Source: Candidatus Liptonbacteria bacterium
GTDB taxonomy: Bacteria > Patescibacteriota > Minisyncoccia > UBA6257 > JACOXY01
Assembly: GCA_016182095.1 (NCBI GenBank)
Contig: JACOXY010000012.1
Coordinates: forward strand, 25,864-89,863
Reading direction: 5' to 3'
Length of the DNA: 64,000 nucleotides
Of this stretch, positions 23,266 through 30,331 are shown one piece after another. A program made the position numbers and the translations under genes. Under the pieces are notes generated by a model, which made no database searches, was not told where the DNA came from, and was given only the letters and a program-made list of their open reading frames with translations. The stretch's first letter is position 1, and each line of letters opens with the position of its first letter.

Positions 23266-23985
23266 TTAAAATGACAAATATTTCTCCCACTTCTCATAAA
23301 GCTCCGCGGTGGCTTTGATATCTCGGATATTATATTCAACAATTTCCTTGATTTTGCCTTCGGAATAAAGTCTCTTTACGTCATCACCCGAAACCCCCTC
23401 TTCCTTTGGACTTGTAATCCCAAACGCCCTGGTCCAAAAATGGAGCGAGAACGGTTTTCTCATCGCTCCGTAAAATGTAAGCTGATCCTGCAAGTCAACA
23501 TGCATCGCGTCATAATCCTGATAAGAATTGTACCGGTTTTTTAAAAGATTCTTACTGGGGCGGATGCCGTGGATTGCCGAACGTATCATAAGGAAAGGCG
23601 CGTCCATCCCCCTCCCGTTAAATGTGATGAAGGTATTGTATTTTTTAGCAACTTCCCAGAATTTTCCTAAAATTTCTTTTTCGCCTCCCAACTCAATCTG
23701 GATTTCATCTCCCAACGCTTCCTGCATTTTTTGCTTGTTTTTGTTATCGTTGCTCCCGCTATTATTAGCAAACACCACGCCCTTTTTTGTGTCGGGATTG
23801 AAACATCCAATCACAATAACCTCTCCGGTTAGTGGCCAAAAGCCGAGCTTATCTTTCCTTTCCTCTGCCTCCGCATCATCCTTACTTACACGCGCGAAAT
23901 ACGTCTCGAGCTGCTTTCTGGAAGTCTCGTCCAGTAAGTCAAAATCCACGCCTACGGTTTCAATGTCTAAGACTAGTTTACTCAT
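23266..23985 (-). CDS. DEDDy-type 3'-5' exonuclease (RNase H-like fold, PolB-exo/YprB-like)
   Basis: LVLDIETVG (Exo I), FNGRGMDAPFL and YNIRDI (Exo III, YxxxD) motifs. Confidence 0.6.
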   Translation of the reverse strand: MSKLVLDIETVGVDFDLLDETSRKQLETYFARVSKDDAEAEERKDKLGFWPLTGEVIVIGCFNPDTKKGVVFANNSGSNDNKNKQKMQEALGDEIQIELGGEKEILGKFWEVAKKYNTFITFNGRGMDAPFLMIRSAIHGIRPSKNLLKNRYNSYQDYDAMHVDLQDQLTFYGAMRKPFSLHFWTRAFGITSPKEEGVSGDDVKRLYSEGKIKEIVEYNIRDIKATAELYEKWEKYLSF

Positions 23986-24438
23986 ACCCAGTATCAACTT
24001 CCAGCATGATTTATTTTTTATAAAAATAAATCATTATACCAGAAATTAATTTAATGTTTATTGATAGTTAATCACTATCCCATGAACTATTTTTTGCCCA
24101 CAACACTGGAAGTTGTATTACTGGGCATGAGCAAAGTATAGGCCACAAACATGATATTGCGCAAATTGCGGTTATATATTATACTTTTTAGCGTTAAGTA
24201 CTGGGGTGAAGGATGCGCTCGTTGGTCATTAATGCCCCTCGGACATGGCATCCCATCACTAAATTTCGAAAACTATAGAAATGACTCCCAGCACTATTTG
24301 TTGGCAACACTATTGCTAAAATATTGTTTTACCATAGAAGCGCCTGCGGCTTCGATATTGGTGAAATAATGTTCTACAACAAATAGGGCTGGATGCTCAT
24401 TTTTGTAGTTAAATTTTACAAGTAAAATTTAAACAAAA

Positions 24439-24851: not shown

Positions 24852-24882
24852 AAAACAGCGCCCGCGTGGGCGCTTTTGAATT
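24852..24882. terminator. bidirectional terminator hairpin
   Basis: gcgccc-gcgt-gggcgc with a T run on the minus strand; just downstream of the minus-strand gene 24882..25268. Confidence 0.55.
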
Positions 24883-25268
24883 TAGTCGCATTCTTCTTCT
24901 TTGAAACCAGCCGGAACGGTTTTTTCTTGCATCACTAGACGAACGCTTCGGGTTTTCTTTAATACAATTTCCGCTCCGCAAAATGGGCAAAAGCGCATCT
25001 CTGCTTCCGCCGTGGATAATCCACTTGCTTGCGATGGCGAGAGAATGACCTTCAGCTCTCCGCGCACAATCAGATTTATTCCTGGCTTTGAGTTGTAAGC
25101 ATCGCTCTCACAATTAAAGTCACTTACCTTGTGATTGCCTGTATACCGAAAAGTTTCTTCGAAACTCTCACAGCATGGCTCCAAATTATCAAATCTTTCC
25201 CCGTAACCATAGCCACCCTGAATAGTTGCCGATTTATAACCAACAACACACTGCCGCTCGCCAGACAT
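24882..25268 (-). CDS. hypothetical protein with a C-terminal zinc ribbon
   Basis: CPFCGAEI plus upstream CC motifs. Confidence 0.45.
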   Translation of the reverse strand: MSGERQCVVGYKSATIQGGYGYGERFDNLEPCCESFEETFRYTGNHKVSDFNCESDAYNSKPGINLIVRGELKVILSPSQASGLSTAEAEMRFCPFCGAEIVLKKTRSVRLVMQEKTVPAGFKEEECD

Positions 25269-25430: not shown

Positions 25431-25874
25431 TCATTTATTCTCCTCGGCGATAACGCACACCCAGATTTTTGTCTTTATGCCAAATCCTAGATCTATTTCA
25501 ACCTGGTGTTCGCCTAATGCTTTGAGCGGCTTCTCCATATCAACTTTGGAGTCTATGCCCTTTTTCTTTAGCTCTGCTTCAATTTCTTTGGCGCCAATCG
25601 CAGCAAATAACTCCCCCTTCTTGCCGGTTTTTACTTTGAATTCTAACGGCTTCTCCCCTAATTCTTTCGCAAGCGCCGCTAATTTTTCTTTTTGCTCCTT
25701 TCTTTCTTCTTCTACTTTCTGTTTTCTATTTTCTAAATTCTTAATTTCCTCCGTCGTCGCCGGTTTTGCAAGCCCGCGCGCAATCAAAAAATTCTTCGCG
25801 TAGCCGTCCGACACGTCTTTTATCTCGTTTTTCTTCCCTACTTTACGAACATCTTGCAGAAGGATTATTTTCAT
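25431..25874 (-). CDS. rplI: 50S ribosomal protein L9
   Basis: MKIILLQDVRKVGKKNEIKDVSDGYAKNFL signature. Confidence 0.85.
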   Translation of the reverse strand: MKIILLQDVRKVGKKNEIKDVSDGYAKNFLIARGLAKPATTEEIKNLENRKQKVEEERKEQKEKLAALAKELGEKPLEFKVKTGKKGELFAAIGAKEIEAELKKKGIDSKVDMEKPLKALGEHQVEIDLGFGIKTKIWVCVIAEENK

Positions 25875-27499
25875 TGCGTATTTTTTTGAAAATATGATTT
25901 AGTGTCTACCCCCTCCGTGTACTCTACCTTAAAGGAAAGCTTGTTGTCGGCTGATTTTTTTACCCATATGTTGCCTATGTTGGATGGCATGTCAGGAGCT
26001 ATGACATTAAAGCCGAATACTTTTGATAATTTTTCCGCAATACCTGTCGGTTGTCCCGTATTACACGACACTAAAATAAGCGTTGCGTCATCCTCAAAAA
26101 ACTTTTTACTTCTTTTGACTCCCCTGCCCCGTAGATCATCACTGAATAAATATGAGCGTTTAGAACCATCGCCGAATTTGATACTGTTAATCGTGCCGTG
26201 ACCGCCAATAATTGCAAAGGAGATCTTGTGTCTTTTGCCATATCTTCTGTCAAGCTCAATAAGCCGGCGCCCAATTTCTATCTTGCTCCCCGCCTCAACA
26301 GTCCTTAGGGAGTGCGTGTCTTTTAGCGCGGAATATAAATTAGCGAAAACACGCCGACCTCCATAGAAAGCACCGGTGTTATCGTCCTGCGGATATAGAA
26401 TAATGCCGTATGGCTTTTCAATGTCGTCTCGTTCTTCGTATTGCGACAGCAACATTTCTTCGGGATAGCGGCCAAAGTCTTTTATTCCGAATTCTTTCTG
26501 TAAAGCCCGCGCTGCGCCAGGACTACTTTTTTCAATTGATCTGATTGCCCAAAGATTGGCAAGGAGATAGTTGTGCAGAAATAGCCGACTATCTTCCTCC
26601 GAATAAGCCGTTTGTAGCCAGATTTTTAACAGAGAATCGGGATCGTCCAACCCGTAAAACTCCACGATCTTTTTGATCACCTTTTGAGTTGACCCTATCG
26701 GAACGCCGTCCGCTTGCCGCTTATTTATAAGCATCCGCAATGCATAACTTGCTGAGGGCAATTCCTTTGAAAAAGCTCGCACCAATAACTCCAGGGCCCC
26801 GCGTACCACCTCCTTCCCATACGAATAATCTATAAAGCGTGCAAGCAGGGATACACTGCGATCTGACAGCAAATCAACGACATTTTCGTGGTAATCCAAT
26901 GCCTGCGTGGCGCGCTCAATTTTAGCGATTTGCCCCTCCATCAACGATTTAATCAATGATTCAATTGCGGGGAAATTTTCAATAATAAAATTATCCCCAA
27001 AATCAATCCACCTTAAAATATCATCTATATCGCTCCCGTTTTCATGAGCTACCTCCTCGCGGGAAATAGCTATCATTTCCTGAATTGCTTCAAGCGCGGC
27101 TATTTTATTATGCTCCCTGCCATCAGAGTTTATTAGCTTCTCAAAAGTTGGCATGCTATCCGCAATGATGCCGCAAAAAAATTTCCGCGCCTCATGCCGA
27201 GCCACACTGGGTATCCATGCAAGAAAGCTAAGGTTCCAGAGCATCTTCTCGAACGACTCTTCTGATTGAAGACCTTCGCGAATGATCGCTTTCTCGCGCG
27301 TGATTTTTAAAAGATACTTTTCTGCTTCTTGCCGCAATGTCTGGCTACCAGCTTTTGATACTTTATTTTCAGGCGAAAGATTCTCGATACTAAAAAAATC
27401 AAAAATATCTTTATATATGTGTTCATATTTCTCCGGATCTGATTTCTGCTCTTTACGCTCTGCTGGGGTGATATTTTTTTCTAATTTCTCTCCCTCCAT
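25871..27499 (-). CDS. large helical-repeat protein with a C-terminal caspase-fold (CHAT/gingipain-like) His-Cys domain
   Basis: C-terminal ~230 aa carry AIIGGHG (His) and TLILVSCNTGQ (Cys) in the order and spacing typical of CHAT/C11/C25 peptidases; stop codon overlaps the rplI start. Confidence 0.45.
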   Translation of the reverse strand: MEGEKLEKNITPAERKEQKSDPEKYEHIYKDIFDFFSIENLSPENKVSKAGSQTLRQEAEKYLLKITREKAIIREGLQSEESFEKMLWNLSFLAWIPSVARHEARKFFCGIIADSMPTFEKLINSDGREHNKIAALEAIQEMIAISREEVAHENGSDIDDILRWIDFGDNFIIENFPAIESLIKSLMEGQIAKIERATQALDYHENVVDLLSDRSVSLLARFIDYSYGKEVVRGALELLVRAFSKELPSASYALRMLINKRQADGVPIGSTQKVIKKIVEFYGLDDPDSLLKIWLQTAYSEEDSRLFLHNYLLANLWAIRSIEKSSPGAARALQKEFGIKDFGRYPEEMLLSQYEERDDIEKPYGIILYPQDDNTGAFYGGRRVFANLYSALKDTHSLRTVEAGSKIEIGRRLIELDRRYGKRHKISFAIIGGHGTINSIKFGDGSKRSYLFSDDLRGRGVKRSKKFFEDDATLILVSCNTGQPTGIAEKLSKVFGFNVIAPDMPSNIGNIWVKKSADNKLSFKVEYTEGVDTKSYFQKNTQ

Positions 27500-27521: not shown

Positions 27522-28775
27522 CTACATGGCACCTACAGTCGCGAGCGCCTTTTCTAACTGCGGATCTTTTCCCGCTTCTATATCTTTATCGGTTATTTTA
27601 ATCTCAATGTCCGGCGCAAGACCATTCCCCTCAATTACAACGCCGCTCGGCAACACCCAGCTTGCCACCGTGATTTTTATATTTGAGCCGTCGGTTAATT
27701 CTCTTAACGTCTGCACGGTGCCCTTGCCAAACGATTTCTCGCCAATAAGTTTTAACCCGAGTTGATCGCGCAGGGCGCCCGCCAAAATCTCCGAAGCCGA
27801 AGCCGAACCGCCATTTATTAAGACCACGGTGGGCCATTTTTTAATAACGGCGTTCCCTGGAGATTTAAAATCTTCGCCATTCTCGCCATCCCTAAACTTC
27901 TCACTAACCACAAGCGTTCCTTTATCTAACCACCAGCCGGCGATATTAACGGCCACCTCCAAGTAGCCGCCGGGGTTATTTCTCAAGTCAAGGATGATGC
28001 CGCTCGCCCCCTTTTCTTCCGCCTCAACCAGAGCTCCGTAGAATAACTCTGGCGCTTTTTCATTAAAATTATAGAGAGAGATGTGAGCAATACCGCCACT
28101 TTCTTGAGACGCACCCGTAAGACCAAGCATCTCTAATTCAATAGTTGGAATCACTATGTCGCCCCTCACAATTTTAAACTCCTTCGCCTCTCGTAAGCCT
28201 TCGCGAGCTATTAAAAGCTTAACCTCCGTACCCTTCGGCCCCCTTATTAAATTAACAGCTTCATCAACATCCAAGACGTCGGTAAAAGTATCGCCAATTT
28301 TCATAATGTAATCGTTTGGCTGAAGACCGGCCTTCTCCGCAGGAGTATTTTTAAGCGGAGCTATGACCACCAGCTCGCCATTTCTTTTGCCTATTTCCAT
28401 GCCGACACCGCCAAAACTGCCACTGATGTCTTCGCTAAATTTTTTGGCTTCCTGCGGCGGCAAATAAACAGAATGCGGATCCTTTAATGAGTTTACAAGC
28501 CCGCGTATCGCGCCATATAGAAGATCTTGGTCGGTAAGTTTCTCGCCGTGAAGGGCGTCTTTCTTCACAATCTGCCACGCCTGCCAAAAAGTGTTAAAGT
28601 CGCCCGATGTGGAAGTCGCGTTAACATTTTTAAGGTCAAGGACAACTTCCCTTGGCTCCCTTGCTCCATATCTGAATCCGTAATAAAATCCCCCGCCCGC
28701 TACCGCGGTTATTATAACCATACCCAAAATTACACCACCAATTACTCGCCAATTGATATTTAAACTTAACTTCAT
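27522..28775 (-). CDS. ctpA: carboxyl-terminal processing protease (S41, PDZ)
   Basis: PDZ segment (GLQPNDYIMKIGD); S41 motifs ILDLRNNPGGYL and GGSASASEIL. Confidence 0.8.
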   Translation of the reverse strand: MKLSLNINWRVIGGVILGMVIITAVAGGGFYYGFRYGAREPREVVLDLKNVNATSTSGDFNTFWQAWQIVKKDALHGEKLTDQDLLYGAIRGLVNSLKDPHSVYLPPQEAKKFSEDISGSFGGVGMEIGKRNGELVVIAPLKNTPAEKAGLQPNDYIMKIGDTFTDVLDVDEAVNLIRGPKGTEVKLLIAREGLREAKEFKIVRGDIVIPTIELEMLGLTGASQESGGIAHISLYNFNEKAPELFYGALVEAEEKGASGIILDLRNNPGGYLEVAVNIAGWWLDKGTLVVSEKFRDGENGEDFKSPGNAVIKKWPTVVLINGGSASASEILAGALRDQLGLKLIGEKSFGKGTVQTLRELTDGSNIKITVASWVLPSGVVIEGNGLAPDIEIKITDKDIEAGKDPQLEKALATVGAM

Positions 28776-28857
28776 ATCAAATATTAAATATTAAAAATAA
28801 AATACACATATCAAAAATTAAAATAGAAAATGGTCGCGGAGCGACACCATATTTTTT

Positions 28858-28905
28858 ATTTTTGCCTATAGCCTGTCGGCTCGGCCGTTTAAGGATATTT
28901 GATTT
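28858..28905. repeat. 48-bp intergenic repeat family, copy 1
   Basis: tttttatttttgcctatagcctgtcggctcggccgtttaaggatattt; reverse complement of 49003-49050 with 3 mismatches. Confidence 0.7.
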
Positions 28906-28951
28906 TTTATTTAATTCTAACAAAATTTACCGCAAAAATACAGATACAATT

Positions 28952-30331
28952 TTATTGTGTCGTCTCTAAAGCGCCACGTGTATAGATGTTGGAGGGCGCC
29001 CAGATCATCCAGCCATCATAGAGAAGAGTATTTTTTACCATTTCATCGACAGCTTTGATCTGGGCTTTGACTTCTTCAATATCATAGTTAGCTCCTAAAT
29101 CAAAGTCCTGCAGCCAAGGCCTTAATTTTGTATTGGCATATGAAACCTTTGTCTCGCACTGAAGCGTTGTGGAAACTGTGGCGCTACTTGTGATTTCCGC
29201 GCAAACTTTTTCCTTGGTGGTAAGTTTATCCACTGCCTTTTCCATTGAATATCTGACAACTTCATAGGGATGCGCCCCTGGATTTTCATATCCAATAAAC
29301 CCTTTGGCATAATGGGACGGATACACCATAGGCGCGATGGCGTCAAAATAGGGAGCTGCGCTTTCTAAATTTTGCCCAATGCCAAGATCGTCGTTATTCA
29401 CTGTTACAAGGCCGAATAAATCGGCAGAAATTTTTATGCCCGCGGTGCGCTCTCTTAAATATGCAAAAAATCTCGTAATCTGCGTCTGTTTAAGAACAGT
29501 TTGGCTATCGTAGTAGTTAAACTTCATGGCATTTATTATTCCATCGGAAGGAAATCTGATGTAATCAAAATTCACTTCATCAAAACCACGCTCCGCGGCG
29601 TCTTTGGCAATCTCAATATTATAATCCCACGCCTCCTTGGCCCCGGGATCAATCCAGCTTAGGCCCTTATTATCAAGCCATAAAACCCGTTTGGTAGTTG
29701 TGGCCGTTATAACCGATGTAGACGTTCCGTTTGTTTCTACAACAGCCGGAGCGGTCATGACATCTCTTTGGATCGCGAGATCCGGACGCGCTGTTGCAAG
29801 CACCGGGTCTTGGAAAACTGTTTGTCTTGCTATAACATAAATTCCCTCATCATGAAGGCGCTTGATGACGGAATTTATGGCCGGGATTCTAACTTCCTTC
29901 GCGCCATATTTTATTACATCCGGATTTTGAATATCGTAAAGAACAGCCCCTGAAAAATCCTTGATATCTATTACTATGGCGTTTAGTTCGGTTTCCTTTA
30001 TGAGCTTGATAAAATACTCCAGTTTTTTTGAAGAGCCGGCCGACCAACTGGTAGAGTAAATCGCTTTGATAACTTCCGGCGGATTTGGCAATGGCTTTTG
30101 CCGCTCAATGTCTTTATAGGCCGAGGTTCGTCCGGTTGCGCCTGCATTAGTTGTTCCAGCCGCAACAAAATCAGCCGTAGAACTCGCAAGCTGATTTTGT
30201 GTACTGAAAGCGTTTCCGGCGACAATTCCCATGGGACTCGCACGCAAATCAATCTCCTCGCCGGGAGTCAAATATAAGAACGAAACAATCCCAAAAATAG
30301 TGAGGACAGCGGCCAAGATTACCAATTTCAT
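28952..30331 (-). CDS. putative TIM-barrel glycoside-hydrolase-like protein (DUF4015/GHL-like), secreted
   Basis: N-terminal TM/signal; ELNAIVIDIKD and WLDNKGLSWIDP motifs recall the uncharacterised GH-like TIM-barrel family. Confidence 0.45.
   Translation of the reverse strand: MKLVILAAVLTIFGIVSFLYLTPGEEIDLRASPMGIVAGNAFSTQNQLASSTADFVAAGTTNAGATGRTSAYKDIERQKPLPNPPEVIKAIYSTSWSAGSSKKLEYFIKLIKETELNAIVIDIKDFSGAVLYDIQNPDVIKYGAKEVRIPAINSVIKRLHDEGIYVIARQTVFQDPVLATARPDLAIQRDVMTAPAVVETNGTSTSVITATTTKRVLWLDNKGLSWIDPGAKEAWDYNIEIAKDAAERGFDEVNFDYIRFPSDGIINAMKFNYYDSQTVLKQTQITRFFAYLRERTAGIKISADLFGLVTVNNDDLGIGQNLESAAPYFDAIAPMVYPSHYAKGFIGYENPGAHPYEVVRYSMEKAVDKLTTKEKVCAEITSSATVSTTLQCETKVSYANTKLRPWLQDFDLGANYDIEEVKAQIKAVDEMVKNTLLYDGWMIWAPSNIYTRGALETTQ

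Follow-up and report, generated by a model that had tools for sequence, protein, structure and literature searches.

A Pfam-invisible family of caspase-fold proteins in Candidate Phyla Radiation bacteria, with likely kinship to DUF4347 and C80 peptidases

A substantial part of bacterial diversity belongs to the Candidate Phyla Radiation (CPR), or Patescibacteria, whose lineage-specific proteins mostly lack an assigned function. Here, we analysed one such protein, of 542 residues, encoded in a window of 64,000 nucleotides of Candidatus Liptonbacteria (CPR/Patescibacteria) DNA (contig JACOXY010000012.1) by a gene that overlaps rplI, the gene for ribosomal protein L9; all locus coordinates below are positions in this window. 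The C-terminal domain of the protein is predicted to adopt a caspase-like fold of peptidase clan CD and carries an invariant His-Cys dyad. Judging from the structure models and from sequence comparisons, the family is best described as an uncharacterised, Pfam-invisible and CPR-wide branch of DUF4347/C80-like clan CD peptidases with an N-terminal architecture of its own. Our best explanation, which we hold with modest confidence, is that the protein is a soluble two-domain cysteine endopeptidase of this kind and that its overlap with rplI carries no functional link.

These results provide a fold, a predicted dyad and a nearest characterised relative for a family of ~1,500 clusters labelled 'hypothetical' in databases, and would extend the DUF4347/C80 branch of clan CD beyond toxins that proteobacteria and clostridia secrete. 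Possible roles of the protein are regulated proteolysis or the interaction of episymbionts with their hosts. The analysis offers a concrete and testable experimental lead for CPR biology, and a misleading lead is removed, namely the overlap with rplI, which proved to be without conserved meaning.

Predicted fold and catalytic dyad

The original prediction, made from the sequence of the window, placed an open reading frame (ORF) overlapping the L9 gene start at 25871-27499, and this gene is real. A protein 100% identical to its product is present in the database (P0001, the NCBI hypothetical protein HYT12_02745) and comes from a Candidatus Liptonbacteria metagenome-assembled genome. The gene and its parts are as follows, with the basis of each assignment in brackets.

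25871..27499, minus strand: whole gene of the two-domain protein, including the stop codon (ATG-started ORF of 542 aa; ORF list)
26621..27499, minus strand: residues 1-293, fast-diverging all-alpha N-terminal region (DSSP of the AlphaFold2 model; phmmer/jackhmmer)
26435..26620, minus strand: residues 294-355, helical preface that precedes the protease core and is conserved (alignments of 29 and of 152 homologs; AlphaFold2 helices)
25871..26434, minus strand: residues 356-542 and stop codon, predicted caspase-fold (clan CD, DUF4347/C80-like) catalytic core (AlphaFold2 domain model; Foldseek)
26381..26383, minus strand: codon of Asp373 in loop L1 after strand b1, candidate S1-pocket or dyad-supporting residue (99% conserved)
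26198..26200, minus strand: codon of His434, predicted catalytic histidine, in GGHG, two residues after strand b3 (100% in 152 domains; codon verified)
26063..26065, minus strand: codon of Cys479, predicted catalytic nucleophile, in LVSCNTG, two residues after strand b4 (100% in 152 domains; codon verified)

We modelled the full-length protein with AlphaFold2, using a 29-sequence alignment, and modelled residues 262-542 separately. The full-length model reached a predicted local distance difference test score (pLDDT) of 86 and a predicted template modelling score (pTM) of 0.84, and the domain model a pLDDT of 92.3. Residues 12-355 are all helical in the model, and residues 364-542 form an alpha/beta domain with core strands assigned by DSSP to residues 364-370 (b1), 397-403 (b2), 426-432 (b3), 468-477 (b4) and 498-502 (b5). 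His434 lies two residues past b3 and Cys479 two residues past b4, which is the arrangement of clan CD, whose hallmark is a catalytic His followed by a catalytic Cys at the C-termini of strands b3 and b4 (PMC4357240).

When the domain model, itself a prediction, was compared with the PDB using Foldseek, all 19 matches at E<=1e-3 were to Tce1 or to caspases. The top match was Tce1 of Pseudomonas aeruginosa (9qpe_G; E 7e-5, TM-score 0.61 normalised to target), and caspase-7, -3, -11 and -4 were matched with E values of 2e-4 to 2e-3 and probabilities of 0.95-1.0; a SAVED-CHAT structure (8tl0) was matched at E 2e-3, with a root mean square deviation of 4.2 Å over 153 columns. The BFVD search returned generic viral caspase-domain proteins, plus spurious DnaB matches. 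Collectively, the models support a caspase-like fold of clan CD for the C-terminal domain. An alpha/beta-hydrolase-type Cys enzyme was considered and rejected, as the order of His before Cys and the Foldseek matches indicate clan CD.

The two motifs on which the original prediction had relied, GGHG (residues 432-435) and LVSCNTG (residues 476-482), do occur in the order that it gave, although its distance of about 55 aa was slightly too large, with 40 residues separating the motifs and 45 from His434 to Cys479. A word-indexed protein search with the whole sequence yielded 29 homologs, whereas 1508 were found at E<=1e-3 when 1.84 billion cluster representatives were scanned exhaustively with HMMER, 494 of them at E<=1e-30, nearly all covering only query residues ~210-320 onward to ~540. 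By these sequence searches, the family would comprise about 1,500 clusters at 50% identity. Both His434 and Cys479 are invariant in the alignment of the full-length homologs (29/29) and, together with Gly365 and Glu402, 100% conserved in 152 homologous domains, in which Asp373, Arg344, Leu333 and Leu350 are each 99% conserved; a His-Cys spacing of 45 is also the mode across the family. Given this invariance in both sets, the pair is not a chance motif, and with a confidently predicted fold the two central expectations, a caspase fold and a conserved dyad, hold. Neither a different fold nor an unconserved His or Cys, either of which would have spoken against them, was found.

Relationship to DUF4347 and C80 peptidases

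The original prediction had also assigned the domain to the CHAT, C11 or C25 (gingipain-like) peptidases, and here the evidence points elsewhere. We scanned 40 diverse domain sequences of the family singly against Pfam at E<=10, and none of the 40 matched the models for CHAT (PF12770), C11, C13, C14 or C25, even at this permissive threshold; likewise, no C25 or C11 structure was among the Foldseek PDB top 50, and Tce1, which carries DUF4347, gave the closest structural match. The matches that did appear were to DUF4347 (PF14252; 6/40) and Peptidase_C80 (PF11713; 2/40). One domain (P0046) exceeded the DUF4347 gathering threshold, with 26.8 against 24.6 bits and an E value of 5e-6, its residues 95-238 aligning to profile positions 13-149, and the other five matches were sub-threshold (E 0.05-0.15). 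All six share one register, in which the His falls at profile position ~55-60 and the Cys at ~98-101. Of the two C80 matches, the one that was located, in the P0007 domain, lies below threshold (17.1 bits against a cutoff of 23.8, E 0.0067) and aligns residues 127-223 to profile positions 50-145, spanning both His and Cys. One member past the PF14252 threshold and five below it indicate, at the level of sequence profiles, remote homology to DUF4347 and not formal membership; the protein from the window itself reaches neither the DUF4347 nor the C80 threshold and is not a formal member of either family. The most divergent members of the family, with GC/SCK variants, were suspected as the source of the DUF4347 matches, wrongly so, as 0/10 of them match.

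The topology of the model concurs. C80 is alone within clan CD in missing helices a4/a5 and in carrying a beta-hairpin, the 'beta-flap', after b5 (PMC4357240). In our model, b5 is followed only by strands at residues 508-515, 521-527 and 533-537, with no helix of at least four residues and no a4/a5, so that, judged from the order of secondary structure elements, both the C80-type loss of a4/a5 and the strands after b5 are present. Since structure, weak sequence signals and topology agree, we place the family in a divergent DUF4347/C80-like branch of clan CD.

Several observations weigh against this placement and the function that we derive from it. The protein from the window matches no Pfam (E<=1), NCBIfam or PDB sequence model, and the placement therefore rests on predicted structure and on the sub-threshold matches of its relatives. 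The structures of C80 cysteine protease domains (CPDs; 3PEE, 3HO6 and 3EEB) are absent from the Foldseek PDB top 50, and the link to C80 is indirect, running via Tce1, two weak Pfam matches and topology. Moreover, an arms-race role, as effector or in immunity, would likewise account for the extreme divergence of the N-terminal region described below, and the housekeeping context is compatible with it. Sequence searches against the PDB with the single sequence and with a domain-only profile gave nothing relevant, and those with a full-length profile gave only spurious matches of the N-terminal region to helical and designed proteins. A profile search of a set of 5.8 billion proteins with the domain alignment returned more CPR members only and no bridging Pfam-annotated proteins, and a literature search found no paper describing this CPR protease family.

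Tce1, the only DUF4347 protein with a solved structure (PDB 9qpe, chain G), is the best solved-structure match. Tce1 (PA0256) is a type VI effector of P. aeruginosa that carries DUF4347 and resembles the CPD of TcdB (PMC8262886, PMC13323088), and the dyads are H186/C240 in Tce1 and H65/C115 in Tce2 (PA2372) (PMC13323088). As in the CPR family, Tce1 has a His-then-Cys dyad on the central sheet and a C-terminal protease domain preceded by an N-terminal extension, whereas the spacing of the dyad differs (45 in our protein, 54 in Tce1 and 50 in Tce2), and so does the setting. Unlike Tce1 and Tce2, the CPR proteins have an additional conserved helical preface (residues 294-355) and a much larger and variable helical N-terminal region. 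Tce1 and Tce2 are small, Hcp3-loaded cargo of T6SS, the type VI secretion system, although Hcp/T6SS delivery describes these two and not necessarily all DUF4347 proteins; near the CPR genes, no T6SS or other secretion genes were found within ~4-5 kb of the homolog in ~39 other loci from at least 10 CPR lineages, which is the sample behind all statements on homolog neighbours below.

With the C80 peptidases (the CPDs of Vibrio MARTX and Clostridioides difficile TcdA/TcdB, and Shigella OspB), the modelled protein shares the clan CD fold, the placement of the dyad where b3 and b4 end, and the beta strands in place of a4/a5 after b5 (PMC4357240). The spacing of His110 and Cys155 in the TcdB CPD (numbering of PMC13323088) is 45, the same as in our protein, and the C80 toxins, like the CPR family, carry variable cargo N-terminal to the protease. 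Unlike C80, the CPR proteins do not belong to a giant toxin that is secreted, and activation by inositol hexakisphosphate (InsP6) is implausible for them; as regards a basic InsP6 pocket, a conserved Lys/Arg cluster is not seen in the C-terminal strands, and near-invariant basic residues in the 152 domains are limited to Arg344, Arg399 and Lys425.

Caspases (C14A; caspase-7, -3, -4 and -11) make up most of the Foldseek top 50 and agree in core fold and dyad placement, but with TM-scores of just 0.37-0.43, sequence identities of 12-18% and no Pfam C14 match; the protein lacks the a4/a5 helices, the p20/p10 linker and the basic S1 residues for Asp that caspases have. The CHAT proteases (PF12770; SAVED-CHAT, TPR-CHAT/Csx29) and separase (C50) show an analogous combination of a helical N-terminus and a C-terminal caspase-like protease. 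The CPR family, unlike CHAT, gives no CHAT Pfam signal in 40 members and has no signalling or CRISPR partners, and the structural match to SAVED-CHAT is weaker than that to Tce1.

A hypervariable helical region and a conserved preface

The original prediction had described the N-terminal part as helical repeats. The helical nature is borne out by the model, in which the N-terminal 355 residues are all-alpha, with ~75% helix and no strand, but repeats were not recovered, with no matches to known repeat families in Pfam at E<=1. The region diverges very fast: phmmer with residues 1-285 against 189 family proteins found one relative (P0011), and jackhmmer reached 30. A word-indexed search with the N-terminal 285 residues gave no matches and missed even the identical P0001, so this negative should not be over-read. 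In all 46 loci fetched (~39 distinct), the protease module is C-terminal, behind 130-975 N-terminal residues, and the N-terminal part varies greatly in both size and sequence across the family. The longest example is a Peribacteria protein of 1234 aa with 975 aa before the protease (L036, 1091-4795), and other long members have 866 aa (P0016) and 773 aa (L025). No signal peptide or transmembrane segment was detected in the N-terminal region of the protein from the window, where KD19 hydropathy peaks at 0.76, and almost no family member has a transmembrane-like or signal-like hydrophobic stretch.

The preface, which runs from Trp294 to Gln353, separates the variable part from the core and has the motif EFGIxDFGRYPxExLxxQ, with invariant or nearly invariant Trp294, Leu333, Phe342, Arg344, Tyr345, Leu350 and Gln353. 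It is modelled as helices at 305-325, 329-337 and 347-355, and neither the DUF4347 nor the C80 profile matches extend into it.

This architecture invites a comparison with the MARTX, TcdA and TcdB toxins. On this reading, the protease would mainly serve as a CPD-like releasing module, with a single cis-cleavage upstream of its own b1, set off by a small molecule or a protein, freeing the hypervariable helical N-terminal cargo, for instance an effector that these episymbionts direct at their host. The nearest relatives are indeed DUF4347/C80-type domains, the order of variable N-terminal part and protease parallels that of cargo and CPD in TcdB and MARTX, and N-terminal divergence as fast as that observed is what effectors would show. 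C80 enzymes cleave at a Leu ~30 residues before b1 (PMC4357240), and the near-invariant Leu333 and Leu350 lie 31 and 14 residues before b1. However, both leucines are inside predicted helices, the invariant Asp in L1 would speak against a hydrophobic S1 pocket, and the pTM suggests a stable two-domain unit; furthermore, there is no signal peptide, transmembrane segment or translocation domain in the protein and no secretion-system gene nearby, and InsP6, the activator of C80, belongs to the eukaryotic cytosol and would not be expected where the host is a bacterium or an archaeon. We regard release of an N-terminal cargo as unlikely, although it is the strongest competitor of the explanation that we prefer. 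A bolder version appears distinctly unlikely. In it, the family is a CPR-wide and lineage-defining 'cargo plus CPD' system, and a C80-like protease that responds to a prokaryotic cue and not to InsP6 releases itself from a hypervariable, helical part with an action on the host during episymbiosis; if true, this would be without precedent both as a self-processing, toxin-like family of effectors bound up with the CPR way of life and as a case of a bacterial-target activator for a C80-type domain.

Proposed mode of action

Under the explanation that we prefer, a DUF4347/C80-like endopeptidase, the protein would be a soluble and probably cytoplasmic two-domain enzyme. Cys479 would act as the nucleophile and His434 as the general base of the catalytic dyad, the peptide bond being cut through a thioacyl intermediate. 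The preface (294-355) and the helical N-terminal region (1-293) are predicted to pack onto the core, and the pTM suggests that the modelled domains have a fixed mutual arrangement. Together, these two parts would most likely provide substrate or partner recognition or hold the enzyme latent. All characterised clan CD enzymes are latent until activated (PMC4357240, Table 2), and this one probably is too; its latency might be relieved by a ligand, a partner or cis-cleavage.

Loop L1 offers a hint of specificity. The S1 determinants of clan CD enzymes sit on L1 or at the start of a1, the residues on L1 being Arg87 in caspase-7, Asp365 in MALT1 and Ala47 in MARTX (PMC4357240). Because Asp373 lies in L1 and is essentially invariant, where C80 has a hydrophobic S1 residue, it suggests a preference for a basic P1 residue and makes C80-type specificity for P1 Leu doubtful.

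Genomic context and distribution

The immediate neighbours of the protease gene in the window are as follows.

25431..25874, minus strand: rplI (ribosomal protein L9), a neighbour outside the protease system (PF01281 and PF03948; TIGR00158 at 112 bits)
27522..28775, minus strand: S41 C-terminal processing protease with a PDZ domain, upstream of the protease gene (Pfam PF03572 at 2e-45)

The junction sequence shows that the ATG of rplI and the TGA of the protease gene share 4 nt, as ATGA at 25871-25874, and that the S41/PDZ gene ends 22 nt before the protease start on the same strand. It is preceded by a DUF4015 glycosyl-hydrolase-like gene, the two together spanning 27522..30331 on the minus strand. 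A promoter and terminator scan found no minus-strand terminator between the protease gene and rplI; promoter-like sites were fewer than in shuffled sequence, and the scan was uninformative in this respect. The S41/PDZ, DUF4015, protease and rplI genes probably form one transcription unit, in this genome only, and the ATGA overlap probably entails co-transcription, and possibly translational coupling, which would give co-expression with rplI in this genome. Rfam and tRNA scans returned nothing close to the locus, and the wider window neighbours are housekeeping genes, including those for CTP synthase, L27, the DnaX clamp-loader subunit and a PolB-exo-like exonuclease.

The original prediction considered the overlap with rplI unexpected and called for an assessment of its conservation in related genomes. 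We used the L9, S41 and DUF4015 proteins of the window as queries, and none of them was found close to a homolog, nor did all-against-all clustering of neighbours reveal any recurrent neighbour; the family gene stands on its own. Six homologs on long contigs lie in six different neighbourhoods: one follows pth, another sits among hypothetical genes in the vicinity of secA, a third separates pheS from pheT, a fourth comes after femAB and ahead of hydrogenase genes, a fifth is flanked by an amidohydrolase gene and murD, and the last precedes a Na/H exchanger gene. Operon conservation with rplI was thus not found, and since L9 is not near the homolog in any of the other loci, the overlap seems to be a local coincidence in a compact genome, with no functional link to the ribosome. 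A ribosome-linked role, in which the protease would process or regulate L9 or other ribosomal components, could draw on the ATGA overlap and on the L27 gene nearby, but ribosomal genes are common neighbours of anything in ~1-Mb genomes; as the linkage to rplI is not conserved, this role is already largely refuted, and we reject it as hardly tenable.

The S41 and DUF4015 genes bear on another possibility, that the protein performs a nonhydrolytic or non-peptidase reaction, such as transpeptidation or ligation in the manner of GPI transamidase, or deacylation, in CPR envelope or protein maturation. Clan CD includes transamidases, both genes adjoin the protease gene in this genome, and the family is vertically widespread in CPR, as a housekeeping function would be. 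Nevertheless, the linkage to S41 and DUF4015 is not conserved, the protein has no export signal and its closest relatives are peptidases, all of which makes such a reaction highly improbable.

Family genes are usually tightly packed and co-directional among housekeeping genes, and this context also bears on the suggestion, raised in the original prediction, of a role in defence. A CHAT-type or defence-signalling caspase-like effector, in which a helical sensor of phage or stress unleashes the protease as in TPR-CHAT/Csx29 and SAVED-CHAT, would accord with the caspase-like fold, with the presence of SAVED-CHAT among the Foldseek matches, with an order of domains that recalls separase and TPR-CHAT, and with a fast-evolving putative sensor domain of the type common in immune proteins. 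However, PADLOC yielded no meaningful match, only Cas13a at E 0.02 in the helical region, which we judged spurious; no CRISPR, CBASS, SAVED or other partner genes accompany the homologs, which sit inside housekeeping operons (e.g., between pheS and pheT or before murD), and a scan of viral contigs found no relatives of the family. The failure of all 40 members to match Pfam CHAT and a topology without a4/a5, unlike that of CHAT and caspases, point in the same direction, and we consider a defence effector improbable.

A single strict peptide pattern retrieved 35 loci from GTDB species genomes, distributed over Saccharibacteria, Doudna-, Levy-, Davies-, Kaiser-, Magasanik-, Morani-, Pacei- and Peribacteria and WS2, and the family is apparently restricted to CPR/Patescibacteria. 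Full-length members are also carried by bins labelled as uncultured Gammaproteobacteria (L018, L025 and L042) and Bdellovibrionales (L037). The nearest full-length relatives of the L018 and L037 copies are those of Saccharibacteria and Parcubacteria, at 36-41% identity, and from this similarity we suspect mislabelled CPR bins, transfer outside CPR being less likely.

Some individual loci deserve mention. The genes pheS and pheT form a near-universal pair, and in two loci of one lineage (L005, 5001-6950; L006, 3275-5224) the family gene splits it, with gaps of 5-6 nt to both neighbours. In two GTDB loci (L044, 3572-4664; L046, 693-2191) the family gene is itself split into two adjacent ORFs, which could be due to a frameshift, a pseudogene or an assembly error.

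Two further ORFs of the window are of separate interest. Between the L27 and L9 genes, a 128-aa ORF (24882..25268, minus strand) with a C-terminal zinc-ribbon-like motif, CPFCGAEIV, and no Pfam match may encode a small CPR-specific protein or be spurious. A solitary gene adjoining the ribosomal protein genes (23266..23997, minus strand) encodes a 243-aa protein that matches both the PolB-exonuclease-like predicted 3'-5' exonuclease family (PF10108, 3e-22) and the RNase H superfamily.

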